From contig CM000207.1 in the NCBI GenBank assembly GCA_000002445.1, positions 256,001 through 320,000 of the forward strand: a stretch of 64,000 nt of DNA, read 5' to 3'. The notes beneath the pieces are model-generated. The model did not search any database and was not told the origin of the DNA. It worked only from the letters and a program-made list of their open reading frames with translations. Below, piece after piece: positions 3,508-45,875 of this stretch; the stretch's first letter is position 1, and every line of letters starts with the position of its first letter. The position numbers and the translations under genes were made by a program. Origin of the DNA: Trypanosoma brucei (lineage: Eukaryota).

Positions 3508-3577
<70 letters not shown>

Positions 3578-3655
3578 GTATTGATAGTGATAATGATATA
3601 AAAGTATTGTCAGTGTATATAAACTAATATTATAATAAAAGTGGTAGCGACTAAG
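3462..3655 (+). repeat. 70-bp repeat block (about 2.5 units) with expanded (TAA)n tract, upstream of VSG2
   Basis: gtgttatgagtgtgtatatacgaatattataatgagagcaataataat followed by ~90 bp of pure TAA triplets (3508-3598) and a second partial unit (...gtgtatataaactaatattataataaaagtggtagcg). Confidence 0.85.
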
Positions 3656-4994
3656 TGGGGAGACAAAAATGGAAGCAGTTAAAATAAAGGAAAAGATTTA
3701 ATTTGTGTTAGAAAGTAAGGATGAAAAGAGTTAGAGATTGAGAGGTACAGAAAAAAATATGTGTACATGGATTATGAGCAGTTTCAGACACAAACATTGC
3801 GATTGTGTCATTATCCAAAAAGATATGAAGAAGGGTCAGTGAAGAAAGAAGACAGACTCAAATGTACAGGCTAAATGAGGCTGCTATATTATCCGCAGTA
3901 GAAGAAGAGGTGACTGGAATAAAATAATAAAGAATAAAGCGATAGGATACGCAACGAAACAACAGAGATCAAAGAAAAATTAAACAGGAAGATATTGTAC
4001 TCCACACTTCACAAAGAAATAGATGGAAGATACTGCGGAGATTATGGTGGGATAAACAACTGTAGTAGTAGTTAATAAAACAACTTCAATGGGGTCTCAA
4101 AACAGAACCTTAAGGTTGAGTTTCGTAGTGCACAATAGTGGTAAAAGTATTATTATATCTCAAAACATCGGTGTTACTAGCTACTGCGATTCCCATGGCA
4201 ACTTACAGTAGAAATTAAAAATGATGCAAGGAAAAGTAGAATGCATGTAGTGTTCAGCAGTGTGCGTTGTTGAAGCTAATTTTTAAATATTTAATCATAG
4301 ATTCGTGCTGAAAGATAAACTACACACACTGAACGTACACCATTCAATAGCTAATCTATAAGAAATGCAAGCATTGTGCCAGCAAAGCATATGGTAGAGA
4401 GAAGCCATATATAGGCAGAAAGGTGCGGCAATACAAAAGAAATGTTAGAAACCAATATGACAGCTAGGGTAATGGCAGAAAAACTACAGAAGAGTAAATA
4501 AAAGTCACACATCGACAAAAAGGAAGGAAAGACCGGCAAACCATTGGGAGACTAAATTGATGCATATAAAGATGATACTATCGGGCTGTTGACTGTGCAG
4601 CAGAGCACCATCACCCAAATTACAATATAAGTAGCATAAAATTCTATTAGCGAAGAGCCGTGGAAAATTCACTATCTAGAAGCAAACAGAAATATTAGCT
4701 TGCTTCGATAAGCGTCATTATAGGCACTAAAACTCTTTAAATGTTCTCAGTAACGTAGAAATAGCATTAATGCCGCCTAACTTACAGATCTGCTTTATTT
4801 ACAAGCGAGGCAAGTTATAAGTTCAAAAACTTCGGCAGCTTAGAAACCCATGTCTAGAACATATCACAGGAATTTTATCCTGTTTTAATAATCGCTGCTG
4901 TGGAGAAGCGCAACACCAAGTCTGCTACAGCACACCATACAAAGCAATGTGCGCCCCTTGCCATTATTCTAAAGCCTCAATAGACTGCCGTGGA

Positions 4995-6452
4995 ATGACG
5001 TCAAAGCGTGCAGTCAGCTTACTATTACTGGCACTCGCAAGTGCGAGCAGCAGCTCAGCTTCCCATGTTGCTGTTAAGTCAGAGCTATGGAAGCCGCAGT
5101 GCGAGCTCGCCAAAGAGCTAAGGAAGACGGCTGGTATAACCATCTCAAAACTAAGCGCAAAGCTAACGGCCATCGACAACCTAAACAAGATGAGCATGCG
5201 ACTTCTCCTATTCGGCCAACGAACTTCGCCTCTTGACAACCAGGTCACAGCCCTCGCGTTAGCACTGGCAGCTCAAAAGAAAGCAGCAAAGATCCAATCA
5301 ACCGTGTCGGACAGTGTGAAAACAGGATTACTTGCAACGCAGTACAGCGGCGAGTTAGCAGGCGGAATTGTGTCGGCTGTACATTTTCTAAAGCACGCGA
5401 GTGACGGCGCCCATTACTGCCTCAACAGCAACGGAAAAAAAGGAGACGGCAGACCCGCTGTGGACACCACAGGCTGTGCCACCCTAACAGCAACAGAGGT
5501 TTCAACCGAAACAGGGTTCAACAAAGGAGACATCAACGACGACGGTTTTGTGAAACTAACAGCCCTAACCACCACTGACGGCGCAGGGCAAACAGGGACA
5601 TGCGGTGTGTTTGAAACCGCAAGCGGATCGGGGAGCACAACAGCCGGAATACAGATAAGCGCAGGGGCAAAAGTCCACCTGGCATTCGGAGCAATTGAAG
5701 GCACGACATCGCAGCAGCCCACTCGACCGGCGCTAAACAAGTTCGAAGGCGCAAACCTGGAAGCTGAACAAACATTCTTCGGAAAAGCCCACAAAAGCCT
5801 TAAAGCTCTAACTTTAGACACAACGGAAAATGCCCTGGAAGATCCAAAAGCCATGCTCAAACAACTAGCCACGGAAGCAGAAGCGATGGAAGCCCTGTAC
5901 ACGGTACTGAGCGGAGCTTCGCCCAACAAGAAGCCAACAGAGTTTTCAGCACAAAACCAGCAACTAAAAATCAGATACTTTGGCGCCGACGGCGAAAAAA
6001 CTGAGAAACTATGGGAACAGATAACCGCTGGAAAAACTATAGGAGCCGGGGAGGACCCACACAAGTTCAGTAATCTAAGTGAAGTAAGCACAGCAGATGA
6101 CCTTTCCAAGGCACTTTTTTTCTACACGGCCGCCACCCTAACAGCGACCCGCGAGCTCAAAAGTGAAAATAGTAGGCTGAAAGAAACCACCGCAAAAGCT
6201 GAAAAAACACAAGAACAAATTTGCAATGCAATACAAAACGAAAAAGATTGCGGTAATAATGAAAACTGCAAATACGACAAAGACAAAACTGAAGGACCAA
6301 AATGCATATTAAGCGACAAGGGCAAAAAAGCAGCAGAAAAAGCAAACCAAGAACCAGGAGGGAAAGATGGCAAAACAACCACAAACACCACAGGAAGCAA
6401 TTCTTTTGTCATTAACAAGGCCCCTCTTTTGCTTGCAGTTTTTCTACTATGA
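4995..6452 (+). CDS. VSG: Apparently intact VSG (VSG2). A possible alternative upstream ATG at 4947 would add 16 aa.
   Basis: Uninterrupted ORF (track 4947-6452, 501 aa). The MTSKRAVSLLLLALASASSSSAS signal peptide starts at 4995. Cys-rich CTD (EQICNAIQNEKDCGNNENCKYDKDKTEGPKCIL) and canonical GPI signal GSNSFVINKAPLLLAVFLL*. 70-bp repeats lie 1.3 kb upstream. Confidence 0.85.
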   Translation: MTSKRAVSLLLLALASASSSSASHVAVKSELWKPQCELAKELRKTAGITISKLSAKLTAIDNLNKMSMRLLLFGQRTSPLDNQVTALALALAAQKKAAKIQSTVSDSVKTGLLATQYSGELAGGIVSAVHFLKHASDGAHYCLNSNGKKGDGRPAVDTTGCATLTATEVSTETGFNKGDINDDGFVKLTALTTTDGAGQTGTCGVFETASGSGSTTAGIQISAGAKVHLAFGAIEGTTSQQPTRPALNKFEGANLEAEQTFFGKAHKSLKALTLDTTENALEDPKAMLKQLATEAEAMEALYTVLSGASPNKKPTEFSAQNQQLKIRYFGADGEKTEKLWEQITAGKTIGAGEDPHKFSNLSEVSTADDLSKALFFYTAATLTATRELKSENSRLKETTAKAEKTQEQICNAIQNEKDCGNNENCKYDKDKTEGPKCILSDKGKKAAEKANQEPGGKDGKTTTNTTGSNSFVINKAPLLLAVFLL

Positions 6453-7703: not shown

Positions 7704-9239
7704 ATGCTAATACAGCCGCTGCTGTCGTTTGTTGTGGCTGGCGTGCTAACAACGATCAAGCAATGCTCAGCGGTCGCAGTTAAAAGTGCAAACGCCGAGG
7801 ACTTTGCTGCTTTGTGTGGCTTAATAACTTTAGCGAAAGCAAACTTCCAAAACAAAGCGGAGCAACAAGACATTGCGGACAGCATAAGAAGCCTAATAGC
7901 AATCAACTACACAATTGGCGATGACGCGATACGAGCTGACGTCGCGGCCGACAAGACAAAGGATTGGACAGCTGTATCAGCGAAGCATACCGGCACAAAA
8001 GTCTATTATAGTAAGCACTGGGAGCAGTGGAGTCGCGTAGAGAACCTCAATCCCTCAGATGCCGAAGCAAAGGCTCTACTGGTATGGCACAAGCACCGTA
8101 ATAACAGCGAGGTAAAACAGAGTGTCAGGATGATCACAGAAACCGCCATAGCACTACACGAAGCTGCACAACAAGTCAAAGAAGACCTCAAAGCAGCTGG
8201 CCTCTCAGACGACCTGGAAAGATCTCTTTACGGCGCGCCCAAGGCAACAGCAACATTCAAGTTCGCAAGCGGCAACAGGGAGACAGAATGCGGTAAAGGA
8301 ACGACAGCGACAGCAAGCCCAGGAACAAAGGCAGGGAAAGCGCTCTACTGGGACCTCCTTTGTCTATGTGCTGGCAAAAACACTGACACTGACGCCGGGC
8401 TCGCTTGTTGCGAGGGCTGCGACGAAGCGCCAAACAACAACGCCTGGACGGCTAACACTGACGGCAAAGAACGAGCCGAAAAAATAGCCGAGCGCTGTCC
8501 ACCTTATCTCGTTCCTGAGCAGCTCACCCAAAGCCTGCTGAATTCGAGGTTACTATCGTTCCTAACAAGGGCAAACAAGCATAAGGGCAGCGGGCTGGTC
8601 GAAAAGTTCGTCCTAGGGTACATGGCCGGCATCGGGGCAGCTGGCTGCACAGGACAGACTAGTGCCGGGACTGCTGGTGCCTGTGTCAAGTACAGCGGCG
8701 ACAGCATACTCAAAAATAAGCCTGAGCTACAGTGGCTGACAAACCTAAAAAAGGCAGTGGAAAAAAGTGAAAAGCAAGTCGCAGCTGAAAAGACGCTGCG
8801 TGAATTAGCAACTAAGCTAAAAATACTAAACAATTCAGCAGAGCAGATACTATACACGACCAGTAGAAGGTCTTCAGAACCTGGCACAACGGCAAAAGAA
8901 AACATCCAAACTCCGGCAGCTATCTGCACACAGTATACCACGAACGAGACGTGTATTTCAAACAAATGTAAATGGGAAGGAAAAACAGAAACGACAGGGG
9001 CACATTGTAAACCAGGTGATAATCAGGTTACGGGCCAGAAAAACACAGCAGAAACAGGAAAGACACCAAAAGAGGGAGCAGCAGCAAATGGGTGTGCAGC
9101 GCACGGAACTGATAAGACAAAATTTGAAGGTGACAAAAGCTGTAAATGGGAAGGGGAAACTTGCAAAGATTTCAGTTTCCTTATGAATTAGAAAATTTCT
9201 TTGGTTGCTTCTGCTTTCACTGATTCGGTAGAATTTTAA
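7704..9239 (+). pseudogene. VSG: VSG pseudogene (VSG3): a full-length body with a single in-frame TAG at 9189-9191 that removes the GPI-signal hydrophobic tail
   Basis: 495-aa ORF MLIQPLLSFVVAGVLTTIKQCSAVA... ends ...CKWEGETCKDFSFLMN*. The in-frame continuation KISLVASAFTDSVEF* is the expected GPI tail, so one nonsense codon (TAG where AAG/AAA is expected) truncates it. 16-mer aaatttgatatattataacac at ~9311-9331. Confidence 0.75.
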
Positions 9240-9494
9240 GGATTTTAAGAATTCTTGCATGATTTTATGAAACTCATGAAATTTCCTAAAAATACTAAAA
9301 TATAATATTTTGATAAAATTTGATATATTATAACACTTTTTGGTGAAAATGTGGAAATTGTTGAAAAATATAAAATTTTTGTATGACAGTGCGCTATGTG
9401 TGCAAAGTGGTAAAGTAATATCGTGTGAAAACAAAGTGCTATTCTAATAAACTTCTAACTTTGTTTACCTTTGTTTTCTGTGCATTAGGGTTAT

Positions 9495-9545
9495 ACTAAT
9501 AGCAACAACAACAATAATAATAATAGGAGAGTGTTGTGCTTTAAA
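9495..9545 (+). repeat. Partial 70-bp repeat unit
   Basis: aatagcaacaacaacaataataataataggagagtgttgtgctttaaac (TAA-rich + GAGAGTGTTGTG core, truncated). Confidence 0.6.
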
Positions 9546-9989
9546 CTTCACTCAAAAATGTATAGAATATGCAGCAGAGATTATCACACAGCTAACAACA
9601 GAAATGCCTCAGAAAATCATTCTAATCTGAGGAACTCAAGGCTAGCGAATGATTGTGGCAGTTTTCACGCAAACGTGATAAACTTATTATTATATCTGAA
9701 TTAATGAGTGTAACTAACTAGTGTAATTCCCGTAACAATTCATAGATACGAATTATCAAAGCATTGAGGGGCGGGCACATATGGCTATTATAACCTCTAA
9801 AAACAAAAACCATACATGTATACAGAACTATAAGCTTAAAATACTGAGCAAACACATTGTGAAAGATATATCACAACTTACATATACATAATTATATATG
9901 GAAGAATAATAGAAACTAAATTAACTTTTTTCTTAAGGTTTCTAAGTTTTCTTATAAGATCTCAAATTTTGTTAGTATGTTATGAAATG

Positions 9990-10946
9990 AAATTTGGTAT
10001 TGCGGGAACATTACTATTACTGTTGCTATTACATTTAGTGTGTATGCGCTGTATACATCCCAAATGATAAAATAAATTGCACAACAAAAGTAACAGAGAA
10101 TATTCTAAAGAGGCCAAGAGTGTTTGTGGTTGTAGTGTAATCTCATGGAACTCAAGGATGATGTAGATTCATACTGAGTGCGAAACTAAGCAATATTGAA
10201 ATTATTACAGTTGTGATGGGAGGTTTGTATAGTTATGTTAAAAGACCTAAATAAGTTATGGAGTTTTTACAGAAGCAGAATGCAAGTGATGAGGACATTT
10301 TAATAAGTGTTGATGGTCTGATGTTATTGTTACTGATCAACAAAAGTATGATAATTATGAGAATGCTGTGGAATATTTTATACAATATACAGTATCTAAT
10401 GAGGATAAGTTTAGTGAAGAAGATATAGTAAAAGAGAAGCATATTTCCCCTACTCTATTTATGTCAACAGCTGAGTATTATGAACCTCAGTTAGACTTAA
10501 TTTTAAACTCAGAGCACAGAGAGCATATGGAGAGGTGCGCGTGGTTTTTCAAAGTCTCTTACTTGGCAGAGGACCAAAGAAACCTAACGCACTTACTTAA
10601 GTGGCCTATAACTCAAAAAGCATACTTGAATGGAGGTGGTATAATAGGAAGAGTTTGGGCATTCAGAAAGTTTTAGAAAGCGTTTGATGAAATACTTAAA
10701 ATGACGGATGAGTGGTTGTCAGAACAGAGCATTTATAAGCCGTTACTTCTTTGGAGTGTGTACAAAGAAACTAATATAGGCACGAGACTTCTTTTACCAA
10801 GAGGCTCTATTGGATTAGATTATGAGGAGCGTTACTTTTCCATACCAGTAAGTGGCCCAATTGGGCAAGCTGCATTCCTTCATCTCGCAGGAAACGCCTT
10901 TTCTTGGAGGGAAAGGGCAAAGGAAATTATGACAAACTTGACTTAG
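9990..10946 (+). pseudogene. Glycosyltransferase-like (Fringe/GT31-type motifs) ESAG-like pseudogene, copy A. Paralogue of 46620-47575; possibly the ESAG3-type family common in VSG arrays, but the family assignment is uncertain.
   Basis: ORFs 10368-10676 and 10701-10946 plus upstream frames give ...DEDILISVDGSDVIVTD... (DxD-like) and AYLNGGGIIGRVWAF (GGxG..R-like). About 75-80% nt identity by eye to 46620-47575, including the 5' flank (catttagtgtgt(g)tatgc(g)ctgtat...). Broken by stops and frameshifts. Confidence 0.5.
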
Positions 10947-11343
10947 TATGACAAATATAAAAGTAAAAAAATTAGGAGTCATAATCTAGGGCAACTTCAA
11001 ACTTATGCAGTGTCTGGAGAGAAATTGAATTTTGAATATGAAAGTATTTGCGGAAATGCATTTAAGGAAGGGGATTTTTTTAAGGCTAAGAAAATATAAT
11101 CATAATTAAACCGCCTTCCAAGCAGATAATAATCAATGCAGCCAGGGAAACAAAGCACCATAAGAATTAAAATGGTTAAACAGTCCACAAGAAGAAGAAA
11201 CAAACAACTTTGCACACCACCTCAGTGGCAAGAAATACACAAAATAAGGGTCAACAAGAAAAAGCAAGGCAACATATTAGTCATAAAAACACAAAGGAAA
11301 CTTGCACAAAAACTATCTACACAGCCACACAAACACCAAGCAA

Positions 11344-12801
11344 ATGTACATTCAGGCTTCTGTGGTCTTTTCAGCGCTAATGTTGAAGCTGCTAAGCGCC
11401 AGCATCTGTACGGCCGAAAAGATTACGGACGCCAATGCTGTTTCGACACTAACCACAACGTGCGACGCAGCACAGTTGCTTCAAGCAACAGCAGCACATT
11501 ACGAAGCCAAAGTAACCGCAGCAGCAAGCGTCGCGGCCTCCAACTCGCTGCTTCTCAGTCAATGGGCATTAGCAGCCGCGGCAACGCAAGGAAAGGAACA
11601 AAAAGCATTCGCCCTTCTTCAGGCGCACGCCAACAAGGGGCTCCGTACGGCGGCAAAAGCACTAGAAGCAAACATCGTACAGATCCTCAAGTTCAAAACG
11701 GTAGTGTCAGCCAAAATAGGGATTCTGGCACATCATGCCGCCAGCAAGGCAGGAGAACAACCCGCAGACAAGAAACAGACCGACACCACATTCGACAACA
11801 CTCCAAGCAGCGGCGGCAACAAAGGCGTCGTCAACGACTACCAGATCAAGCCGGAGAATATATGCACGCAAGACCAAAAAGGCGCCATCGGCAGCGGAAA
11901 AGACACTCTGCCGACCCCACTCAAAAAATCGGCTCCACTTACACCGGATACTGCACTAACGAAACTAAAGCTATCAACAGGAATTCAGATAGCTTGCACA
12001 GGAACAAGCCCTCAGTGGAAGTCAAGCGCCAATGAGCTAGGCTGCAGCAGCACAGGCAGCACGGCATTGCTTGGCAACGTGCTAAAAGCACAACTATTCG
12101 AAGCAGACACGGCAGCGGCAGAGCAACTGACAACAAACGAAGACGGCAGCGGCGACTGCAAATCCGATTACCCCGAAAAAGTTAGCTACTAGCCAAGCAA
12201 CGCAGAGGTAGCAAATGCTCTGTGCCAGGCAAGGAAGAAAATACAACCGATGCCAACAGACCTAAAAGACACAACGCTAGCGATGTTAAAAGCGGATCCA
12301 GATTTCAGGAAGCTAATTAGGCAGACCATCCAAGAAAAGGCGCCTGACACTAGCAGCGTGGACAAAGAAATAGACGATATATACGAAACAGACGCTACTG
12401 CTTTCAAAGACAAATTCTTAACAAAAATAGGCCAGCGAACGGCAAAAGTATGGGAAAGCGGCAAACTAAAAGACAAAAAATACTCGGAACTATCTTCACC
12501 TGAACAGCTAGCAGCAGCGCATGCACATGCCGCACAGCAACGCCTGTTTGACGAACAAGTAAAAGAAAAGAAACTAGCACCCAAACCAAAGGAAATGGAC
12601 TGTAAAAACAAGGTTAAGGCTGATTGTAATGGTGAGTGCAAATGGGAAGGAACTAATGATAAAGGTGAGTGCAAAGCTAAAGGTGGGGAAGACGGAGTGA
12701 AAGCGGAAGGAAAAGATGGGAAAGCCACAAACACCACAGGAAGCAATTCATTTGTCATTAATAAGGCTCCTCTACAGCTTGAGTTTTTGGTTCTAGTATA
12801 A
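11344..12801 (+). pseudogene. VSG: VSG pseudogene (VSG4) with a single in-frame TAG at 12190-12192
   Basis: ORF 11302-12192 (signal peptide MYIQASVVFSALMLKLLSASICTAEK from 11344) and ORF 12250-12801 are in the same frame, separated only by ...KVSY*PSNAEVANAL.... The C-terminus ...CKNKVKADCNGECKWEGTNDKGECKA...GKATNTTGSNSFVINKAPLQLEFLVLV* is a GPI signal. 16-mer tatttgatatattttaacacc at ~12836. Confidence 0.8.
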
Positions 12802-12859: not shown

Positions 12860-13640
12860 AAATACAACCGAGAAATTATTATTGTTGGCTTCCTGCACGT
12901 GTAAATTTTTTTATAGCTAAAAATTTTCTCTTTTTTTTTTGTTTTTTTGTCTAGCAAACAAAAAAGCTAAAAAGGGGGTTAGAGAGGGTTCTCCGGCTCA
13001 GGATCAGTCTTATCGTTATGGTTATTTGGGTTAGGGTTAATTTTTCTCTAACTGTTTTTTTATTTAATTGTTTTTTCTTCTTTTTTCTTTTTTTTCACAA
13101 TACGTTGCTAATTTTTTAATTTTTTTAAAGTGATGCAGCGGCCGTTTTTTTATGCGGACCCTAACCCTCCTCCCCCCCCAGCCGAGCAGCGGACTTTTTT
13201 TTTCCACCCCCGCCGCCAACTGATTTTGTTTTTTTTCCATCCGCGGCGTCGCCACGACTTGTTTTTTTTTTACGCTTAAATTTTTTTAAAGACTTTTTGA
13301 TTTATTATTTTCACCGCTTAATTTTTTTTAAGCGGCAGCAGGCACTTGATTTCCTCCCTCCTCCCATTCCTTTTAGCTTTTGAAAATTTTTAAATTTTAT
13401 TTTCATTTGTAGCTTTGTTAAATATATTTGTAACGGCGTCCCGGTTTTTTTAAAAAGCAGTTGGCCACCTTATTCGGAAACCAGCCATCTTCAATTAATT
13501 TTTTTCCTATATTCGCTATCAGTAAGCCAGCGATGCCATCAACGCCCATTTTGCCGTTTTGAATTTCAGCCCTACGACTAACGAAAGGGATCTCTTTAGA
13601 AGCTAACAGCAGAGGAACAGAATAGATGCAAAGCTGTCAC
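12860..13640. repeat. Telomere-derived, T-rich block downstream of VSG4 (copy 2 of the recurring module). Degenerate G-strand TTAGGG at ~12975-13040 and C-strand-like CCCTAACCCTCCTCCCCCC at ~13158-13188.
   Basis: gggttagagagggttctcc...ttatttgggttagggttaattttt then gtgatgcagcggccgtttttttatgcggaccctaaccctcctcccccccagccgagcagcgg; long T runs. Confidence 0.7.
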
Positions 13641-15785: not shown

Positions 15786-17246
15786 ATGTTCCTAGGCACA
15801 GTGATGAAGGCCACGACAATAACTTGCTTCGCACTGAAACTGCTGTCAATGGCTGTGCTCGGCAGCCAAGACCCACAATCCACCGCGGCGATAACCGACG
15901 CCTGCACTGAAATAAGGTACATGCTAAACGTCCGCCAGCATTTCGACCAGCAAATACGCAACCTAGCCCAAGCAGCGGAAGAACTTCACAGCCAGTCAAA
16001 AGTGCTCCGACTGGCAGCAGCAAAACACGTAGGAACCAAGAAGGGCCTTGCATACACCCTACTAGCAGGACTGGCAGCGGCAAGAGAATCACAAGCGCAA
16101 AAGCACCTAACGGAATGGACGCCAAAATTTACAAACGCAATACAGGAGCTATCTGCCAGGATAGCGGTCACCGACAGCGGCCGAACAAGCGGCGGAGCGC
16201 CGACTGAAAAATACGGGTCGGCGGAAACGGACGCCACGACGGACCAGCGGCACGGCGCAACGCAGAGATGCAAGGTAAGTCTGACACTAACGCCATCTGC
16301 GCCAGCAAAGTGCAGCACCGCGTCCAGTGAAGAGAAACTTAAGAAAGCAGCAAGTGAGTTACCAGCCCTAGACAAACTGAAACTAATACAAACGAAGCTC
16401 TTCGGTCAATACAAAGCGGAGGTCAACCTGCAAAGCAAAGGCAGCTCAGCTGTAACGCGTCCAATAGCAGGAAACGCAGGCTGCGAAAGCGCCTCAGGAG
16501 CCAGCACTGACTCTGTAGACATGAAATTCCTTACGCTATCGAAACCGGCCCCTGAATTCGACACACCGAAAATAGAAGAAGACGCGGGGTGCAGGGAACC
16601 GAACCAGCAAAACGATATACACGTACACACAGCTGAGACCCTCATCCACGCCCTATGCCGCGCCCGGAAATTTCCAACGACAAACCAGCAGAAACTAGGC
16701 CCGGAATCGCTAGACAGCATCTCGAGCGACAGCACTGCACAGGAGATTGCCCTAAGACTAAGCAACAAATATAAAAAAGACCAACCGGAAAACCAAAGGC
16801 AAGAAGCGGTAAAGGATTTACTCGGGAAAGGAACGGATAGCATCCAAACCAAGTGGTTAAATGACCTCAGCAAAACGGACAGCACTCTAAAACTACAAGA
16901 TGATGCGCAACCAATAAGCATAGACGCTGCCAGCCAAACCGACTTCGATAAAGCTCTGGCCCTATTTACTGCCCAGGCATACCAGCGAGCAGTTAAACAA
17001 GAAAAAACCAGCGTAACAGAAAATCCCTCTAAAAAAACAGACACAGAAGACAAAACAGAAGAAAAGAAAGACGGGGATAATAAAACAACCGCAGCTGATT
17101 GCAAAGCCTCTTCCGAAACTAATTGTGACAAAACAAAGTGTGATTGGAACGCAGAAAAGAAACAGTGCAAAGTTAAAGAGGGAGCGGCTGTTATTTCAGC
17201 TGTAATCAAGTCCCCTCTTTTGCTTGAATTTTTGCTTCTAGCATAA
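15786..17246 (+). CDS. VSG: Apparently intact VSG (VSG5); the alternative start MKATTITCF... is at 15804
   Basis: Uninterrupted 486-aa ORF; hydrophobic N-terminus TTITCFALKLLSMAVLGSQD; CTD ...ADCKASSETNCDKTKCDWNAEKKQCKVKEG and GPI signal AAVISAVIKSPLLLEFLLLA*. 16-mer variant caaatttgacatgtttcaac at ~17320. Confidence 0.85.
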   Translation: MFLGTVMKATTITCFALKLLSMAVLGSQDPQSTAAITDACTEIRYMLNVRQHFDQQIRNLAQAAEELHSQSKVLRLAAAKHVGTKKGLAYTLLAGLAAARESQAQKHLTEWTPKFTNAIQELSARIAVTDSGRTSGGAPTEKYGSAETDATTDQRHGATQRCKVSLTLTPSAPAKCSTASSEEKLKKAASELPALDKLKLIQTKLFGQYKAEVNLQSKGSSAVTRPIAGNAGCESASGASTDSVDMKFLTLSKPAPEFDTPKIEEDAGCREPNQQNDIHVHTAETLIHALCRARKFPTTNQQKLGPESLDSISSDSTAQEIALRLSNKYKKDQPENQRQEAVKDLLGKGTDSIQTKWLNDLSKTDSTLKLQDDAQPISIDAASQTDFDKALALFTAQAYQRAVKQEKTSVTENPSKKTDTEDKTEEKKDGDNKTTAADCKASSETNCDKTKCDWNAEKKQCKVKEGAAVISAVIKSPLLLEFLLLA

Positions 17247-19587: not shown

Positions 19588-19732
19588 CAGTCGATAGCAG
19601 ACCATCTACAATCAAATGAACACCCTCAAATTCATATCTTCAAACCTGTATGCCACAGGCTCTACACAAAAGCCTTTACAGCCATATATATTCATTCTAA
19701 ATGCAGCCAAAGTAGACCAATTTCCAAAACCA

Positions 19733-21317
19733 ATGTACAAACAGCTATTAATCTTGCTATCTCTGTCCTTTAAACTGACTCAAAGTGCCGACGATGTAAC
19801 TGTGGGCGGCAACAGGCAAGCGTACAGCGCGGTCTGCGGAATTGTAGTTCTAGCGGAAGGAAATATCAATGTGCCACATGAACCAGCGATTACGTCTGAC
19901 GACTACGACTTCGTACAGCAGCTTAATTTAACGTCTTTTAGCGATGAATGGCAAAAGATGTTTTACACAAACGATACTCCTAAAAAAGTCTACAACACGG
20001 CTGACGAGGCGGGAGAAGGCAAAAAGGGTTATGAAGAATACTGGGGAGACCGGAAGAAGGCAGCAGAACAACTACTGACAACGCCGAAGCCTCCAAGACT
20101 CGAAGCGACTGGCATGAGCAAGCTAACGCCAGTACAGAGAAAACTTTCACACAGCGAGATTGCAAAACTTGCTGGGAAAGCGATGCAAATAAAGAAACAG
20201 ATCGACGGACTAGACGCTGGTAAAGTAAAAAGCGCGTCAGAGGCAGCCATACTTAAGACGGCTGTATACGGCAAAAAAGCAGCCACAGCCGACTCAACCA
20301 CACGCGTAACGGCGTTCGGGGCAGACCCCGAAAACACCGCCAGAGGAACCGTGTGCGAGGCAGGTAGCGGCAACCAAAGGGTCAAAACAGTAGCAGCCGC
20401 TCTAGCATGTCTGTGCATGCAAGCCGCCGGAGGAGGCAGTGGCAACTGGCAGTCCTCAACATGCACAAAAAAAGCAGACGGCAGAACAGGGTGGGACAGC
20501 GGCAACAGCGCACCTAAAATCGGCGACATACAAACTGCCCTCAAAGCTTGCCACAAGGCCAAAGCCAAGGAGGCGACAGTAGCCGACATTGGCAGCACAA
20601 TCAGTGGTGTGCTGTCACAAATAGAGGCTTCAGACGCCAACGGCTACATAGGCCATTTTATTCAAACAGGCTGCGACGGCAGCAAAGGCAATGCGGTGTG
20701 CGTCAAAATTACAGGCTACACAGCGGACCCAAAAGGTGCGATCGCAAAAGTGCCATGGATCCGCAGCATTCAGGAACTCACCACGGAACTAAAAAAACAA
20801 GAAGCCGTACAGAAACCGCACAAACTAAACCAAATGCTCAAGCTAGAGGCAGAAGCTGCAAACGCCATCATTGCAGAAGCAAAAGAAACGTCAGCAATGG
20901 TGCTAAGCATTCCGGCGGCAACCACAATCGGTAAGGAAAACACTGCAGCGGCAAATTGCAACAAACACAATAACTCCAAAACCGACTGCGAAAATACAGG
21001 AAAATGCAAATGGGAAGGGACAACCGATAAAGATGACCCATGCGAAGTAGATGAAAGTAAAGTTACAACTCAGAATACACACTAGGAGCAGGAGATGAAG
21101 CAGGGGGAGCGACAGATAAGTGTGTAGCCGCAAAACACCTGAGGACTGTGCAAAAGTGGCAGGAACCAAACGTGAAGGCAAAAATGCCGTTTGCAGGTTG
21201 ATCAATTATATTGATGAAAAAGGCAACTTTCAGCCAGCTTTCCGCTCTTCCAGTTTTCTTGTCAATAGGAAATTGGATCTAATGGCTACCAGAATTATGG
21301 GTTTGGAGGAATTCTAG
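19733..21317 (+). pseudogene. VSG: VSG pseudogene (VSG6): body intact to 21085, with the C-terminal GPI segment in another frame
   Basis: ORF 19616-21085 (signal peptide MYKQLLILLSLSFKLTQSADD at 19733) ends ...CKWEGTTDKDDPCEVDESKVTTQNTH*. The CTD end PEDCAKVAGTKREGKNAVCRLINYIDEKGNFQPAFRSSSFLVNRKLDLMATRIMGLEEF* is at 21120-21317 in a different frame, with a degenerate tail. 16-mer gatttggcatattttaacac at ~21412. Confidence 0.8.
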
Positions 21318-29866: not shown

Positions 29867-31386
29867 ATGATTAATTTCATACTGGCGCTAGCGTTGTTGT
29901 TACGCAGCAGTACGTTTCGAGCCGATGGAGCTGCAACAGCCGGCCTCAACGCTGCAGAGTTCGCAACATTGTGTGTCCTTGAAAGACAATCATCAGGAAA
30001 GCTGAGCGAAGTATATCCAAAAATAACGGTTCCCAGCACAAGCATCGACGAAATGAAAGAAATTGCAGCGGCAACGACAAATGCGAAAAATATCACTAGC
30101 GTACCTGCAGCCGACATCGCGGAAAAGGCTTCCGGCGCGAAAACCTCATTCAGACAAGAAACAAACAAAAAAGAGGAGTGCAAAGAACACTGGGGAAAAT
30201 GGCGCGCAGTCAAAAAAGCGGCGAAGAAAACCCAAAGACCAAGGTTCAAGCCACTGTCTGACGCCCGACGGCACAACCAAGCAGCAGCAGGCTTCATCGC
30301 AGCTCTACACGAACTCGAAGACCAGGCAACGACATTCTATGAGCAGCTACTGCAGCAAGCGGCAGGCGGAGCAAACCCCGAAAAATCTCCAGCAGCAACA
30401 AAGCTAACTAACGCCAAGTATGGAGAAAGCAAAACAAAAGTACAAAGCGCGCCGGTAACTGGCCATGGCGGCTGCAGCAACAGAGGCAACGGCTGCAAAA
30501 GCCCAAATACAGGTACGAGTTTAGTACACAACTTCTTTTGTTTGTGTGTAACTGACACAACTAGCTCGGGAAGCAAAACATGTGGTTTCGCGGTTGCTAA
30601 CTGCGGCAGCGGCGCCTGGGAAGCCTGCAACGAGCAGAGCAAGACAGCAGCGTGGGCAACACTAGAAAGCAAATGCAAGGAAATATATAAAGGCAAAACG
30701 ACAGCACAGCACATAAGGGCTGGACTAGCGGCATTCACAGGACGGCTACAAAGGGATGCAAGCGCCGACATCGGCACCAACGCTGCGGAATTCCAAGGAC
30801 AAAGTCAAACGCAAGCCTGCAGAGCACCCGCAACAAAGGTTTGCTTAGACTAAAGCGCCTCATTCAAAGACACGACTCGGGCGGCCGGAATATACTGGTA
30901 CAAACAACTGGATGCAGGCCGCAGACAACCTCGACACGCTCGCAGATGAACAAGCAGACCTCAAAAACAGAATAAGAGGTTTAGATAGTCTTAACATTCA
31001 AGCCAGCCAGCTGTACAAGCTGATCGCGGCTGCACCAACAGTAACGGCAGTAGCGAGCTCAGAAAGCACCAATTCATAAAACGCCAACACCGAGGATAAA
31101 CAAAAAGCATGTGAAAATATTAAAAAAATAACTGAGTGCAAAAATAACAGGGGATGCAAATGGAATAGCACTGAAAAGAGTGAAGGAGACTTCTGCAAAG
31201 CTAAAGAGGTGGAAGGAAAGACAATTCAAGAAACATATGGGCTGCATGAGCCACAAAGGAAAATGTAAAGGGAAATCGGAGAAAGATTGCAAATCTCCGG
31301 ATTGTAAGCGGAAAGGAAAAGAGTAGAAAGACTCGAGTTTTCTTGTAAATAATAAATCGGCTCCGAGTACAGCTGCTGCTTTTTAG
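29867..31386 (+). pseudogene. VSG: VSG pseudogene (VSG9): N-terminal domain intact (328-aa ORF), C-terminal half frameshifted several times
   Basis: MINFILALALLLRSSTFRADGAATAGLNAAEFATLCV... up to 30853, then CTD pieces across frames (...CENIKKITECKNNRGCKWNSTEK...), ending ...DSSFLVNNKSAPSTAAAF* at 31386. 16-mer aatataatatattttaacac at ~31467. Confidence 0.8.
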
Positions 31387-35118: not shown

Positions 35119-38100
35119 TTTTTTTGGAATTTTCTTCGTGCCTTTGAGAGAGTTTCCCCCCACTGGCGCGGCCATCAGCTATCACCGTAGAGCCCTGAGA
35201 TGCTATCGGTCTGGCGACTGTGGCAGAGTCTCCCTTTTTTATTCATCCTAATACACTCTCTCTATAACGTTTTGTTGTAGCTCCGCAGTTGAACGGAATA
35301 CAGCAGATGGGGCGAGAAGCCCCCCACCCCGGACTCTCCAAAAGATGTCAATTAGCAATCCTTTTGTTTTGATTTTTGTTATTCGTTTATTATTCTCTCC
35401 CCCTTTTTATGTTTTTGTTGCTTGTTGACTGCATACCCCCTCTGTCTCTGAGGGTGTCTGGACTATTCCTGCATCCGGTGCTTTTCCTGCTAGCTCCACA
35501 CTCGGCAATAAGGGGGGAAGTTGCAGAAGGGAGAGTGGGTTGTATGACTGTTACCTTAGGTGAGGACTTCACCTGCGGCCGGCTCCGTTCAACCGCAATG
35601 AGAAACTGCGCCAGCCTTTTGGAGAAGCATATATCCTGCACACACTCACCTTCCACCGCAAACCTGACACGTAACTCCTTCAAACCGGGACAGCTCATCG
35701 AGTGCAGCGACGTTTCTTCACAGTCGCCGCGTTGGCTGGTAACAGCGCGCTCTACCTTCATACCGTGCATCTTCTTTTGATGTAGGGTGAGGCCAGTTTT
35801 GCTAGCACACTGCCTTCCGCATGTCGGGCACACCAACATGGATGCATTTGTATGCGGGGAATCAGTGGCACAAAATTTTTTGCTTTTGCTGCATTTAAGC
35901 TCGACACCCTCACCTTTGTGGAAAGCCTTACAGTGTCGGATGAGGGAGTCCCTGCAACTGAGCACTTTTTGGCACACACCACACTGCACCTCGCCTTTCC
36001 CCTGGGGACGTTAACGTTTCCCTCACGGGCACGCTTACGAGGGAATTGCACCACCACCACGGTACCGTCCTCCGTCACTATGCTCTTATGTTTGAATTTC
36101 TTGTCTAGTGACAGGGAAGAGCGTGTACCGAAACTCGCCTCACACAGGTCACATTGAAACGGCAGCTTCCGTGTATCCTGAGGGGCTGGCGCTGCTGGGG
36201 CGCTACCATCTCCTTGCACTGAGTCCTCGTTCTCTCGCTCCCTTTTCACGCGGCAACTACCGCTGCCTATGCCATGTATTGTTCTAAGGTGGTGTAATAG
36301 TCGGCCTGGCACTGCGAATTTGGAGGCACAGAGGGTACAATGAAGAACCTGCGGTCTCATCGGGACTCGTGTGTTCGATGGTAGAGGAACGATCACCACC
36401 ACTGGAGGGGGCTCCGGGGGGATATCCACTGCAGGTGTTGCATCGCCGTATTTGATCCTCCGGAGGGCATCAGCTCGCACAAAGCCATGTTTGTTTACCA
36501 TGCGCGTTACAGCACTCGAGCGGCATTGGTATATGGCATCACATTCCGTACATTTGGTCGGTTCGGAGGTTCTCTGAAGAGTGCGTGTCGCAACAGTTGG
36601 GACCGTTTGTATTGTTTGCCCTATCTCTGCATGTTGCGGGTTGCACCATCGGCACTGTGGGAGCGCACTCGGGTTGATCTTTCACAACATCCATCCATAG
36701 TGCCTTGAAGACCCAACCCGAAAGCGTGCCAGTGCCGTTTCTTCTTCCATCGTTAATTATTCCTTATGTTTTGTTGTAAAGTGGTTGCCCGTGATACCAA
36801 ACCTATGAGTGTTCTCATGGACTTCTTCCGACCTAAGCACTCGCTTCGCATAAGCAATGATGTCGGGGATCCATGTGTCTCGCAACTGTGGTAAATCAGC
36901 GGCCTTTTTGGCCATTTCATCACAAACCTCATTCCGTTTCACGCCACAATGGCCAAACACAAATTGCAGTCGGATACGTATCTTCCTTCTCTGAACTTGA
37001 AGCAGAAGCCTCCATAGTCGTCTCAGAATTGGGTCCGTTACGGCTAGGGGGCCTGTCTGCAGTGCTGTTAACATTGACAGCGAGTCAGAGAAGATGGACA
37101 ACCTGCTCTGTGTGCTTCTGTATGCCGGAAGCCATTTCAGCAGCCGTTGCAGTCCTATCTCTAATGCTACGCATTCCGCTCTGTAACTGCATGAGAGTTC
37201 CTCTGCTCCGGTCTTGGGTGCACAAATCAGCGTGTTGTTTCTATAGAGCAGGGCAGCTGCTCCGGACTTCTCACCGAGGGACACGGATCCATCAGTCCAC
37301 AATTCGTAGTGCTCTCGCCGCGGTGGCTCCTTCCCCCTCCGTGCAAAATGCCGTGCAATCCACTTTTCGGAAGCCTCCCTTTTGACATCATCAGGGTCAT
37401 CAGCGCATACGGGCTTTATCTGCGTGTGAAATAGCGGTCGGCAGCTGTGGCGGAGCGTCGATGTCTCTAGTGGGTGCTCGCGTGGCTCAATGTGGAGGTG
37501 GGGATAGGACCACATGATGCGGGATTGTAGGGCTCTGACCGTATGTTTACTGTGGTATACTTCCTCAGCACTGCGGCGCAAACATCCGCCTCGTGACTCA
37601 CACATCAGCATGAATTTCATGCTGCGCACAAGAGTGGCCGTCTTGAGTAGCAGGAGGTTTGCTTCCAGCACAGAGTTCTCTTTGCGCGTCCCATGCGGTA
37701 TGCCGGCTATGATGCGACTGGCTTTGTGTTGTGCTGATGCAAGGAGGTCGCGACTTCGTTCCGAAGCGTCCCAGTACCATACCTCAATACCATACATGGT
37801 GTGTGCCTGTACGAGTGCTAGATAAAAAGCTCTCAGTACTTGTTGTCTTGGCCCCCATGTAGAAGCTGAGATGGCTACTATCTGCAGTAGTCTGAAGTCC
37901 ATCTTGCGTCTCGTTTCGGTCGCATGTGTTGCCATCCCCTGCAGACACTGGAATGTTACTCCTAGAAGCTTCGGTGTCCTGTCAGCTCCTATTCTTTCGC
38001 CGTCCAGTTGTAATGTAAGGGGGTGGCGCTCTGTACACCCGAAGAGTGTGCACTTTGTTTTCGCTACGTTGACAGACATGAAGTACTCTTTTGACCACTG

Positions 38101-40373
38101 TAACACCACGTTTAGGCCGCATTACAGCGTGTGGTTGATGACATCCCTCTCTGTGTGCCTCGCAAGTAGCGTTAGGTCGTCTGCAAAGAATCCGTGCTGC
38201 AGTAACGGCACTTCTGCAAGGCGTTGGCTCAACGAGTTCATGACAATAATGAACATGATTGGGCCAAGGACAGTTCCTTGTGGCACTCCTCGCTCAAATG
38301 TTCTGCTTCTGGAAAGCTTCTCCTTGAATCTCACTCTGCCAGTTCGGTTACTCAGAAATGATACGCACCACTTCACAATGTGGGGTGATACCTTCATTCT
38401 GTGCATTTCCCTCGCAATTTTGTCGTGGTCTACTGTATAAAATGTCTTCTCGTAGTCAACGAATACAGCACCCGTACGATATTGGTGCGTGGGACGGCAG
38501 AGGGCAGCACGGACGTGCAGGAGTTGTTCGAGCGTTGAGCATCCGGGGCGAAAGCCTGATTGCTGCGGCGTCAGCTGGGACTCAACAGTGTCTCTAAGCC
38601 TCGCGGCAATTATGCGCTCCATGACTTTGCAGAGACAGCTCGTGAGCGTCACAGCTCTGTAAGAATCGAGGTCCTCCGCCTTTTTTCCGGCCTTCAGGAT
38701 GGGGATGATAACACCAGTCTTCCATGCAGGCGGCACGACTCCCGTTCGTAGGCTCTTATTGAATAGCTTCAGCAAAACATTCAGCGCTGTTCTACCGAGA
38801 TGTTGCAGTGCCTCGTTGTATAAGCAATCAGGTCCGGCTGCGGATCCACTCGGTAGCAGTTTGATCGATCTCCTTAGTTCAGCCATCGTGATGGGACTGA
38901 ACTCACTCGCTATCGTCTTTACTGGTGCTGGTGGGTGTGAGTCGGGGTGCCTTCTTGCGCGGGACGATTACAGCTTACTGAACTTCTCAGCTTGACGGCA
39001 GTCCGTGATGGTCGCGTTATCGACAAGTACAGCCGGTGTGGTTAGTGGTCGTGGCGCATATACTTTCTTGACAATGTGCCAACTGCAGCGGTCTGACACC
39101 GCAAGTCTGGAGCATAGCGTGCTCCATCTCTTCTTTGTGGTACGGTCCAGGATCTGCTTACGCGTGGCTACCAACTTTTCCCTTCGGTGGGAGGGTCCGC
39201 ATCCAGCGATCTCTTCATCGAGTTTCGCGAGCTCAGGTGTCCAATGTGGTGGCGTTGCTCTGCAGCCACGGGGGACGGAGACCTTCGTCGCAACGCGGAT
39301 TTCGGAGCTCAATTTCTGTTCCAGGGTGTTGACATTCTTCTCTCTACCAATTTTCCTACAGAGGTCGTCAACCTTGAGACGGAAATTCCTCCAGTCAGCT
39401 TTCAGCCATACGTACATGGGCTTTCGAGGCCGCGGGCAACTCAGTGCATCTGTGCCGTCTCCAACGATAACGTCAAAAAATATGTGATGGTGATCGCTAT
39501 CGGGAGAATACAGCGATGTCCACGTGTACACTGTGCAATTCCTTGACAGTGTCACATCAGGGGTGGACTCCCCGTGGTGGCGCGCGTACCTGGTGCACTC
39601 ACCAGTGTTGCAGACCAGAAACTGGTTGTCAATGCACCACTGTGTGAGGGTTTCACCCTTGGTATTTGGTGGGCTCGCGCGATCCCATGCCAACGCGTGT
39701 GCGTTAGCGTCTGCACCGATGAGCTGGGCACCGTCAGTCATCAGAAGCGTATCTAGGTCAGTTGCCGTGAAGGTGTGTTTTGGTGGGATGTATGCCGACG
39801 TGACAGTCAGCGCCGTTTCACTTGCAAGGTGAATTGTTGCATGCACTTGTTCAATGCGACTAACAACGGTCATACCGCTCTCGACTGGTAGGTCCTCCCT
39901 CACTAGTATTGATACACCACCTCCTTTGCAGTTACGAGCTATTCCGTGATGTTGGTAGCCAGCAACGCTAAAGCAAACCGCCTCTCCAGGCGTCATCCTT
40001 GTCTCGCTCAACGGACAAAAGGCGATCCGCTCATCAACAAGGGTTTTGTGGAGTGCTAATCTCTTTCCTTGAGATAGCCCGGCGCAGTTCCACTGTATCC
40101 CGCGCAACGACGGGCCGGGATTCTCTTCCACATCACCGGACAGCAACATCTTAGTGCGGATGATACTGCTGATGACACACTGGCACGTGCCCAGGGACCG
40201 ACAAATGAAGAACGGTGTCCCAGCAAGACGCTGCTGATCCCTGTGCTGTATGATGCCGTAGCCGGAGCACAGCAGTGTTCCCCATGAAAGGAACGCTTCT
40301 GACTCTTGGCTTACCCCGATGATACGGGGTACTGGACCCTGGCACCACGTTGAGGTGGCCGGCATCGCCAGGG
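35119..40373 (-). mobile_element. ingi: ingi non-LTR (LINE-like) retrotransposon, full-length-sized (5255 bp) but degenerate, with its ORF broken into at least five pieces
   Basis: Minus-strand ORF remnants: 38968-40413 (RIME/ingi 5' region ...EAFLSWGTLLCSGYGIIQHRDQQRLAGTPFFICRSLGTCQCV..., 2A-like DVEENPGP, APE-type endonuclease WNCAGL...); 38122-38886 (RT: FRPGCST...FVDYEKTFYTVDHD...FFADDLTL); 36757-38109 (RT thumb and RNase H: LWTDGSVSLGEKSGAAALL); 35758-36501 and 35390-35989 (C2H2 zinc fingers CTLCASKFAVPGRLLHHLRTIHG, CDLCEASF...KFKHK, CGVCQKVL...HCKAFH). Poly-T run at 35119-35125. Flanked by a perfect 12-bp TSD. Confidence 0.9.
40112..40135 (-). other. 2A-like 'ribosome-skipping' peptide motif (SGDVEENPGP) near the ingi N-terminus
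   Basis: The reverse complement of cgggccgggattctcttccacatcaccgga encodes S-G-D-V-E-E-N-P-G-P within ORF 38968-40413(-). Confidence 0.8.
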
Positions 40374-40385
40374 TGTTATTTTGAT
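40374..40385. repeat. 12-bp target-site duplication (5' side of the minus-strand ingi)
   Basis: tgttattttgat, identical to 35107-35118. Confidence 0.85.
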
Positions 40386-40535
40386 GAAAACAAAACGCCA
40401 AAATGTTTTCCAAAAGAGAGCAAAGAAGACAAGAAAAATGGGCATAATGGGAAAACGTAAACTAAAAACACCACAGGAAACACTTCTTTTGTCATTCATA
40501 TGACCCCTCTTTTGCTTGCGCTTTTGATTCTATAA
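40386..40535 (+). pseudogene. VSG: VSG10 3' part (CTD end and GPI signal) resuming after the ingi and TSD
   Basis: Continues in frame from CYFD|ENKTPKCFPKESKEDKKNGHNGKT* with the GPI tail NTTGNTSFVIHMTPLLLALLIL* in the +1 frame. 16-mer-like tttgtgatattttaaagttg at ~40593. Confidence 0.75.
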
Positions 40536-42346: not shown

Positions 42347-43927
42347 ATGCGGTATTCAGCACTGCACAGTTGCCTCTGGGCCATGTTTCTCTTACTTTTC
42401 CATGAACTAAATGTGGACGCGACTTCAAAAGGCGCGATAAATGGCGACAAGTGAAAACCGCTGTGCACACTAACCAAGGACGCAGTCAAAGTGTATAACC
42501 GTGCACTCAAGCTCCAAAAATTAATTAGGGACTACACCAAAGCGGCCAGCAAGCTGACTGTAGCAGCAATCGCTGCAGCGGAGAAGCTGCAAAGCACAGA
42601 CGCCACCGCGGCAACAATAGGACTTGTGGCTGAGATAAGAGAGCAGCTGAAAGCAAACAACCAAAAGTCGGAAGGTTCTACAAAGTGGCCGTAGAAACAC
42701 CGGCCTTCATGGGCTACACGCACGGACTGATAGCCGAATTCTTAGAAATAATGGGCCACAACAGAGGAGCATCGAACTACGGGTGCCTAGCAAAACTAAG
42801 CTCCCCGAATTCGCCGGCCACCGAAGCAGCAGCAGCACTATTATCGACCTGCAAAATCAAGCCGGATGACATAACAGCAGGAAGCGAACCGACGGCAGTG
42901 CTGACCAAAGCAGGTTTTGTCGGTATGGACGAAGGCACAGGCCTCGTCGCCGGTGTTCTCACGACCGGCGGCAACGAACACTGTGACCTAACGTCAGCCA
43001 CAGCAAGTGCCTTAAACTCAGACACAGGAATACAAGAAGATATTCCGTTCGCAGACGGCTATTTCCTAAAAGGGCCAACCAACACTGCTCAAACAAGTCA
43101 CCCCATAAATTCGCTGTCAAAACAAAGGGAGGAACTCCCAAACAAGGGCCAAAATCAACAATATGTGAGGCTGTGTGACAAGTACGTCCAACTGGAGAAA
43201 TGTGAAGCGGCTTTCAAAGAGGGGTTTTCGAGACCCGAAGCAGAGACACTCAAACAGTCAGGAGCAGTATTAACAGCCCTGAAAAACATAATCGACAACA
43301 AAAGCGGCGAATATGACCCGAGTAAAGACGGCGGCCAGATCAAGACCATGGCTGAGAAATTGTTCAAACCCGGCGTGGACAACTACCCAGAAAAGCTATA
43401 CAAGGAAGTACAAGCAAAGACGTTGACAAAAATACTGATGGCGGGCAACACAGCAACGAGCCTGGCGGAACTGGAAACCCCAATAGACCTGCAAATCGCA
43501 CAAATATACTATATACAACGCAAGATCGATGGTTTTACCGCAAAAACTAAAGGAAGCTGAGAAACAGCTTTCCAAGGCTAAACTGGGTGATTATGGAGCA
43601 GCCGCAGCAGAAGATGCCTGCAATAAACTAGATGGCGAACAAAAATGCAGTTACGAAACGGCAAGTGATGGGACTAAAAAGTGTACATATAATGCAAGCA
43701 AAGCAAAAGCAAACAACGTCCCTGTAGCACGAACTCAAACAGAATCGGCTGAAAAAACAACAAAGAAATGTAAAGGTAATAAAATGGATGACTGCAAGTA
43801 TCCGGATTGTAATTAGGAAGGTAAAACTTGCAAAGACTCTAGTTTTCTCTTCAATACGAAAACGACTCTGATGGCTGCAACTTTTCTGTTTTTTTTTAAA
43901 TTTTTTCACCCTCTATTTCCTTGCTGA
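42347..43927 (+). pseudogene. VSG: VSG pseudogene (VSG11) spread over at least four frames
   Basis: Signal peptide MRYSALHSCLWAMFLLLFHELNVDATSKG (42347); ORFs 42491-42694 and 42685-43560 (291 aa N-terminal-domain-like); 43529-43816 (CTD: CNKLDGEQKCSYETASDGTKKCTYNASKAKANNVPV...KKCKGNKMDDCKYPDCN*); then EGKTCKDSSFLFNTKTTLMAATFLFFF... GPI tail. 16-mer aatttaatatattttaacaac at ~43926. Confidence 0.8.
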
Positions 43928-45519: not shown

Positions 45520-45698
45520 TAGTTAAGAACATTATAATGATAATAATATAAGTGATATTGATAGCGGAGTGTTGTGAGTGTGTATATACTAATATTATAA
45601 TAAGAGCAGTAATAATAATAATAATGATACTAATAATAGAAGAGTGTTGTGAGTGTGTATATACGAATATTATAATAAGAGCAGTAAAAATAATAATA

Positions 45699-45729
<31 letters not shown>

Positions 45730-45875
45730 TAATAATAGGAGAGTGTTGTGAGTGTGTGTATATGCGAATATTATAATAAGAGCAGTAAAAATAATAATAA
45801 TAATGATAATAATAATAATAGAAGAGTGTTGTGAGTGTGTGTATATGCGAATATTATAATGAGAGTGCTGCGGTC
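45520..45875 (+). repeat. Large 70-bp repeat array (about 5 units)
   Basis: Five successive ...gagtgttgtgagtgtgtatatac(t/g)aatattataataagagcagtaa(t/a)aataataataat(gat)... units are readable at 45545-45870. Confidence 0.9.

Follow-up and report, generated by a model that had tools for sequence, protein, structure and literature searches.

Two near-full-length ESAG3 pseudogenes that decayed independently in a subtelomeric VSG array of Trypanosoma brucei

The window analysed here is a stretch of 64,000 nucleotides of Trypanosoma brucei DNA (GenBank assembly GCA_000002445.1, contig CM000207.1, positions 256,001 to 320,000 of the forward strand), and positions are counted from its first letter. 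Its surroundings are those of a T. brucei-type silent array of variant surface glycoprotein (VSG) genes, in which two disrupted copies of ESAG3, referred to as copies A and B, each lie between 70-bp repeats and a VSG, as an earlier note on this DNA had correctly placed them.

9987-11099, + strand: ESAG3 pseudogene, copy A (tblastn, frameshift-aware protein-to-DNA alignment, and blastp)
46647 to ~47747, + strand: ESAG3 pseudogene, copy B (tblastn, frameshift-aware protein-to-DNA alignment, and blastp)

The earlier note had picked out 10233-10946 and 46836-47575 as homologous regions, each with about 250 bp of 5' flank. Homology at the nucleotide level was borne out: 9947-10855 and 46606-47505, both on the + strand, were aligned by blastn with 70.9% identity over 915 columns (E 6.5e-120), and a MAFFT alignment likewise put the homology beyond doubt. 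The boundaries, however, had been drawn too narrowly, and what had been taken for flank encodes the signal peptide and N-terminal region of the same gene. For the catalogue of lesions, the ESAG3 protein Q26748 (P0001, 368 amino acids) was aligned to the DNA by a frameshift-aware dynamic program. In this alignment copy A covered ESAG3 residues 1-368 in order, beginning with an ATG at 9987 and ending with the native TAA at 11097-11099; copy B spanned residues 1 to ~367. Both copies are thus collinear with ESAG3 (Q26748/CAQ57304) over its signal peptide, its glycosyltransferase (GT) core of the GT-A type, and its C-terminal extension.

The frameshift-corrected copy B matched a single protein cluster, with E 3e-145 and 77% identity to Q26748 in its intact part, and its overall amino-acid identity to expression-site ESAG3 was about 70%. 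Copy A matched the same cluster with E 9e-148 and 59% identity to Q26748. The cluster has 15 members, which are T. brucei ESAG3 proteins of bloodstream expression sites (BES); a few old entries among them are mislabelled as VSG. When the whole window was searched by tblastn with ESAG3 proteins, exactly two loci were recovered, copies A and B, and no others. These clear matches confirm the ESAG3 membership that had been offered as one possibility, and rule out the other, an undescribed array-associated family. Because the copies shared 59-70% of their amino acids with expression-site ESAG3 but 27-32% with GRESAG3 and the ESAG3-like proteins of species other than T. brucei (27-30% with GRESAG3 of the chromosome core), both were placed, by pairwise identity only, on the ESAG3 side of the ESAG3/GRESAG3 split. 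The GRESAG3 or ESAG3-like paralogues of the core chromosomes (Q38A25, Q38A26, and Q586J0) and the T. vivax, T. grayi, and T. conorhini orthologues belong to the same Fam53 and have in common the invariant residues W59, C60, Y82, H84, R87, W90, D110, D113, G215, and others, whereas they differ from the window copies in sequence and in their greater length (383-411 amino acids). We have very little doubt that both copies are near-full-length, non-functional relics of ESAG3 (Fam53 in the strict sense) in a T. brucei-type subtelomeric VSG array.

Copy A carries two frameshifts and five stops in total. The first frameshift is a 2-bp deletion in a (GT)n run at ~10050, and the second is a 1-bp deletion at 10318, within the DXXD motif; the stops replace Q52 (10138), W59 (10159, TGA), W90 (10252), E228 (10674), and W318 (10944), and an in-frame insertion of 9 bp lies at 10347-10355. 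At 10040-10052, in the signal-peptide coding region, copy A reads GTGTGTATGC and copy B reads GTGTGTGTATGC; the 2-bp loss in (GT)n is a lesion typical of microsatellite slippage. In copy B the start codon was changed from ATG to ATA, and at least six stops (W59 at 46821, TAG; E135 at 47049; S204 at 47256; W305 at 47559; and those at ~47620 and ~47641) and at least four frameshifts (~47421, ~47528, ~47571, and ~47713) were found, together with the deletion of one codon at ~47273. Its 3' end is heavily degraded beyond residue ~310, and the last 60 codons are badly eroded. Disruption of both copies by stops, as already noticed in the earlier note, was therefore confirmed and extended to frameshifts. 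Substitutions at family-invariant or important residues were also found, namely T53 to S, H84 to Y, C162 to Y, and W242 to L in copy A, and Q166 to K, E244 to Y, and Q245 to K in copy B. No intact open reading frame (ORF) for an active enzyme was found at either copy, in view of the multiple stops and frameshifts and of W242L (copy A) and E244Y/Q245K (copy B), and neither locus can encode the enzyme. Because of the stops, the frameshifts, and the changed residues, the copies were filed as ESAG3 pseudogenes and not as genes. The losses of invariant and catalytic residues in A and B came after inactivation.

We then compared the lesions of the two copies, which had been described as a duplicated pseudogene pair. 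In such a history one gene would have died and the dead copy would then have been duplicated within the array, and both the common cassette position of the copies (70-bp repeat, ESAG3 pseudogene, VSG) and the stop at the W59 codon in each would speak for it. W59 was, however, the sole lesion position that coincided, and its stop codons differ, copy A having TGA and copy B TAG, both of them one G-to-A transition away from TGG. Moreover, of the ten Trp codons of ESAG3, copy A has stops at three and copy B at two, so that at least one overlap would occur by chance with a probability of about 53%. A shared inactivating lesion as proof of duplication after death was rejected on these grounds. In the frameshift-aware alignment of both copies, none of the at least six frameshifts and indels was shared. 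The Nei-Gojobori method over 358 aligned codons gave a synonymous divergence (dS) of 0.91 and a nonsynonymous divergence (dN) of 0.33, with a dN/dS of 0.37, which dropped to 0.28 when the GT-A core was taken by itself; codon positions 1, 2, and 3 were 70%, 75%, and 57% identical, respectively. Since dN/dS was ~0.3 at a dS of ~0.9 and third positions were the most diverged, A and B must have drifted apart mostly under protein-level constraint. Furthermore, the homology ends at the gene borders, and neither the flanks nor the next VSGs are related, the VSG being A-type behind copy A and B-type behind copy B. Duplication of a dead gene is accordingly very improbable, and the description as a duplicated pair is misleading. 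Copies A and B decayed independently; the lack of a common frameshift and the dN/dS signature indicate that two old ESAG3 lineages diverged as working genes and then died separately.

The following remnants of catalytic elements were located in the two copies.

10312-10322, + strand: remnant of the DXXD metal-binding motif of copy A (D110 GAT, G111, a broken S112 codon, and D113 GAT), split by the 1-bp deletion
10626-10664, + strand: Gly-rich loop region of copy A, LNGGGIIGRVWAF, with G215-G216 kept and aligned with 'FLNSGGFIG' of LH3
46974-46985, + strand: DXXD motif codons of copy B (D110-G-S-D113), intact in frame
47280-47315, + strand: Gly-rich loop region of copy B, LSGGLIARVWAF, with G215-G216 kept and one codon lost just upstream

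The peptide motifs quoted in the earlier note were all present in three-frame translation. The DxD-like site was real, but the peptide DEDIVIHLDGSDVIV is that of copy B, and DEDILISVDG-SDVIV is obtained from copy A only once the 1-bp deletion at 10318 has been repaired. The codons for D110, D113, G215-G216, and H297 were kept in both copies, and D110, D113, and G215 were invariant in an alignment of 22 family sequences. The landmarks that had been picked out by eye are real GT-A elements, corresponding to the first beta-strand, the DXXD metal site, and the Gly-rich loop.

As for the enzyme family, single ESAG3 sequences scored 16-20 bits (E 4e-4 to 5e-3) against the Pfam family PF25342 (GT_PLOD), below its gathering cut-off of 27, and copy A itself scored 15 bits, likewise below the threshold. 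GT_PLOD matched nine of the 22 family members at E<=0.05, with a best E of 4e-10. ESAG3 is thus a remote relative of the PLOD GT domain and not a Pfam-defined member of it. A weak match to Pfam PaO (E 0.015-0.035), overlapping the GT_PLOD region, was dismissed as noise. Against the sequences of PDB, a single ESAG3 sequence found the LH3 GT domain at E 0.029, and the profile of the 22-member family found only LH3/PLOD3 chains, with a best E of 8.5e-7. In these comparisons, 'LDGSDII' of ESAG3 (D110/D113) aligned with 'VDSYDVI' of LH3 (D112/D115), and the family-profile match paired the ESAG3 loop 'YLNGGG.IGRVWA' with 'FLNSGGFIG' of LH3 (G167-G168), this second domain being weak on its own. In a structure model built on intact ESAG3 and 21 relatives, the parent family was predicted to adopt a Rossmann-like GT-A fold, with the LH3 GT domain as the nearest solved structure. 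The ESAG3 family is accordingly a glycosyltransferase family with a GT-A/LH3-like fold.

The motif order had instead been taken to recall a Fringe-type or GT31 beta-1,3 glycosyltransferase, which is an inverting family. The glycosyltransferase part of this proposal stood, as did the three landmarks on which it drew, and the assignment to Fringe/GT31 did not. No match to Pfam Fringe (PF02434) or Galactosyl_T (PF01762) was obtained at E<=10 with the two conceptual translations or with four ESAG3 proteins, nor was any found among the 22 family members, and Fringe/GT31 structures were not the nearest structural neighbours of the predicted ESAG3 model. In addition, the alpha-O-glucose product reported in a preprint (bioRxiv 10.64898/2026.01.27.701950) indicates a retaining enzyme, contrary to GT31 chemistry. 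Descent from a Fringe-type/GT31 enzyme is therefore refuted at the family level, with no detectable sequence or profile similarity and another nearest structural family, and we consider it extremely improbable. Taken together, the earlier interpretation was partly supported: ESAG3 and the GT-A fold were upheld, whereas Fringe/GT31 and the duplicated pseudogene were not.

The same preprint (bioRxiv 10.64898/2026.01.27.701950) gives the function of intact ESAG3. Depletion of ESAG3 abolished O-glycosylation of VSG3, and recombinant ESAG3 was Mn2+-dependent, strictly specific for UDP-glucose, and able to glucosylate Ser/Thr in VSG peptides; the product was alpha-linked, which makes the enzyme a retaining one, and the D110N and W242A mutants were inactive (bioRxiv 10.64898/2026.01.27.701950). 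AlphaFold and Foldseek suggested a GT-A fold closest to LH3/PLOD3, in which D110/D113, G215-G216, E244/Q245, and H297 of ESAG3 superpose on D112/D115, G167-G168, D191/Q192, and H253 of LH3, and the enzyme assembles as an 18-mer ring (bioRxiv 10.64898/2026.01.27.701950). The residue numbering of the preprint matched that of Q26748 exactly. Among the closest known systems are the GT domain of human LH3/PLOD3 (PDB 6wfv and 6fxr) and mimivirus R699. LH3 adds glucose to collagen at galactosyl-hydroxylysine, and accessory and lysyl-hydroxylase domains are joined to its GT domain, whereas ESAG3 O-glucosylates Ser/Thr of VSG and has its own C-terminal extension and the 18-mer ring. Because the glycosyltransferase activity of ESAG3 was shown experimentally in this 2026 preprint, the meaning of the motifs was already known; the literature likewise covers what these elements are, where they lie, and what the motifs stand for biochemically.

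The probability that either locus is still expressed as an enzyme, by way of a sequencing error, editing, programmed frameshifting, or readthrough, is next to nil, and no recoding mechanism of this kind is known for nuclear trypanosome mRNAs. The codons kept for the DXXD aspartates, G215-G216, and H297 in both copies would be in keeping with such expression, but it would have to overcome all the stops and frameshifts of each copy and the lost ATG of copy B, as well as H84Y, C162Y, and T53S in copy A, E244Y, Q245K, and Q166K in copy B, and the replacement by Leu in copy A of W242, whose change to Ala abolishes activity (bioRxiv 10.64898/2026.01.27.701950).

Nothing of substance speaks against the account of two ESAG3 relics that died separately, and three caveats apply to it. 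In copy B, decay of the 3' third has gone so far that neither the exact end nor the lesion count there is certain. A dN/dS value between two pseudogenes mixes selected and neutral phases, and the time of death is therefore undatable. Finally, the ESAG3 biochemistry comes from one preprint that is not yet peer-reviewed (bioRxiv 10.64898/2026.01.27.701950).

The nearest database relative of copy A was a 187-amino-acid ORF fragment of T. b. gambiense DAL972 (CBH11491.1, P0016), which showed 76% identity to copy A residues 174-360. It is annotated as 'hypothetical protein, unlikely'. Almost certainly, CBH11491.1 was called as an ORF within an ESAG3 pseudogene that belongs to the divergent lineage of copy A. 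No intact protein of the copy A branch was obtained in the homologue searches, which returned only one ESAG3 cluster and missed even CBH11491.1; the wider family came from an exhaustive search of representative sequences. Because copy A has 60% identity to expression-site ESAG3, a dS of ~0.9 to copy B with a dN/dS of ~0.3, and only a gambiense fragment as a close relative, it may be read as a deep ESAG3 sub-lineage that was for long a working enzyme outside the known expression-site alleles. Intact subtelomeric members of it, if any, could then differ in VSG acceptor or chain-extension specificity, and array cassettes could be the source of the ESAG3 pseudogenes of BES7 and BES15 and of mosaic ESAG3 alleles. 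We regard this extended reading as speculative and rather unlikely.

The elements around the two copies, and the repeats and VSG domains in the window, are listed below.

9493-9540, + strand: 70-bp-repeat remnant, (AAC/AAT)n followed by GGAGAGTGTTGTG (sequence, and blastn match to the repeats at 45705-45833)
11347-12801 (both approximate), + strand: A-type VSG (pseudo)gene, ~250 bp 3' of copy A
45610-45865, + strand: 70-bp-repeat array, ~2-3 units of (TAA)n + GAGTGTTGTGAGTGTG, ~0.8 kb upstream of copy B
47945-49510 (start approximate), + strand: B-type VSG (pseudo)gene, ~200 bp 3' of copy B, with a VSG_B domain in the ORF 47771-49135
3508-3615, 45610-45865, and 52240-52287: 70-bp-repeat arrays, with the remnant at 9493-9540
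781-2179, 4947-6452, 7704-9191 (B-type), 19616-21085, 29867-30853, 42685-43560, 47771-49135, and 53224-54852: VSG A-/B-type domains (Pfam)

The repeat remnant at 9493-9540 precedes copy A by ~450 bp and follows the B-type VSG at 7704-9191. The A-type VSG that follows copy A has a signal-peptide-like start, MYIQASVVFSALMLKLL, near 11347 and the C-terminal part of an A-type domain at 12250-12801, and is broken across frames. In the B-type VSG after copy B a stop was found at 49135, yet a C-terminal domain and an end resembling a glycosylphosphatidylinositol signal (...SAAFVALLF and a stop) extend to ~49510; since the ORF is closed at 49135 while the C-terminal end continues, this VSG is probably a pseudogene too. 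A conserved motif of the 3' untranslated region, TATATTTTAACAC, was found after it at ~49572.

The order of 70-bp repeat, ESAG3 pseudogene, and, 200-250 bp further on, VSG start was found twice (9493-11347 and 45610-47945), with unrelated VSGs and divergent ESAG3 lineages. An ESAG3 pseudogene between 70-bp repeats and VSG has been described in BES7 and BES15 of Lister 427 (Hertz-Fowler et al. 2008, PMC2567434), where ESAG3 positions coincide with recombination breakpoints (PMC2567434). The likeness to BES7 and BES15 is one of element order, and those are telomeric expression sites, whereas the array here is silent. The window copies share the subtelomeric, VSG-associated setting of ESAG3 but are pseudogenes, and neither lies within an expression site. 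That ESAG3 pseudogenes are prevalent in subtelomeres is derived from the literature.

Several array VSGs are followed on their 3' side, at a distance of a few hundred bp, by short, degenerate, telomere-like (TTAGGG)n tracts, all of them on the + strand (49725-49855, 13025-13040, 44269-44286, and 50736-50760); the longest has ~17 units and is broken by TTAGGA and TTACTCGG variants. Each tract is followed by a recurring element, GTGATGCAGCGGCT...GGACCCTAACCCTCCTCCCCCC (2537, 13130-13180, 44380, 49894-50110, 50243-50292, and 50918-51066), and TTAGGGTTAGGG gave 13 matches at <=1 mismatch against 0.25 expected. These tracts may be relics of a telomeric history of VSG cassettes or a conserved 3' flank module. 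The tract 3' of the VSG after copy B was considered as the fossil telomere of that ESAG3-VSG unit, and this was rejected, as like tracts and the GTGATGCAGCGGCT...CCCTAACCCTCC element stand after several other VSGs. Since similar tracts follow several VSGs of the window, they are a general VSG 3'-flank feature unrelated to ESAG3.

Elsewhere in the window, an ingi-like non-LTR retroelement occupies 36757-40413 on the - strand, opposite to the VSGs, with ORFs of 450 and 481 amino acids that have RNase H and endonuclease/reverse-transcriptase Pfam matches. Two long intact ORFs, at 15786-17246 (+ strand, 486 amino acids) and 61859-63439 (- strand, 526 amino acids), had no significant Pfam match. 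The latter showed only a weak match to A-type VSG (E 0.0015), and its - strand orientation is unusual in an otherwise + strand array. Both may be divergent VSGs or VSG-related genes.

The history of the two copies is best read as follows. Intact ESAG3 is an endoplasmic reticulum-resident, Mn2+-dependent, UDP-glucose-specific, retaining GT-A O-glucosyltransferase acting on Ser/Thr of VSG, an activity known from the literature, with a catalytic core most like the glucosyltransferase domain of collagen LH3/PLOD3. Two old ESAG3 lineages split while under purifying selection, and each copy then decayed alone by stops and frameshifts and, in copy B, also by loss of the start codon. We infer that the pseudogenes persist as passengers of VSG cassettes, and the subtelomeric recombination and gene conversion that move VSGs probably spread them too. 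Because the same order of 70-bp repeat, ESAG3 pseudogene, and VSG occurs twice here and in BES7 and BES15, its simplest account would be gene conversion with its starting point in the 70-bp repeat and the entire cassette as the copied tract. The pseudogenes might also act as sequence donors for mosaic ESAG3 alleles or as homology patches.

Beyond annotation, that is, the correct labelling of two array elements as ESAG3 pseudogenes, the finding has little significance. What had been picked out by eye as a motif pattern proves to be the catalytic DXXD motif and Gly loop of an enzyme for which O-glucosylation of VSG, a modification that shapes antibody epitopes, has newly been demonstrated. A modest point is that two dead copies record two old, long-selected ESAG3 lineages, in keeping with published accounts of ESAG3 moving from subtelomeres to expression sites and back. 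Since the pseudogene repeatedly stands between a 70-bp repeat and a VSG, it can be understood how some expression sites could have come to carry one beside their VSG.
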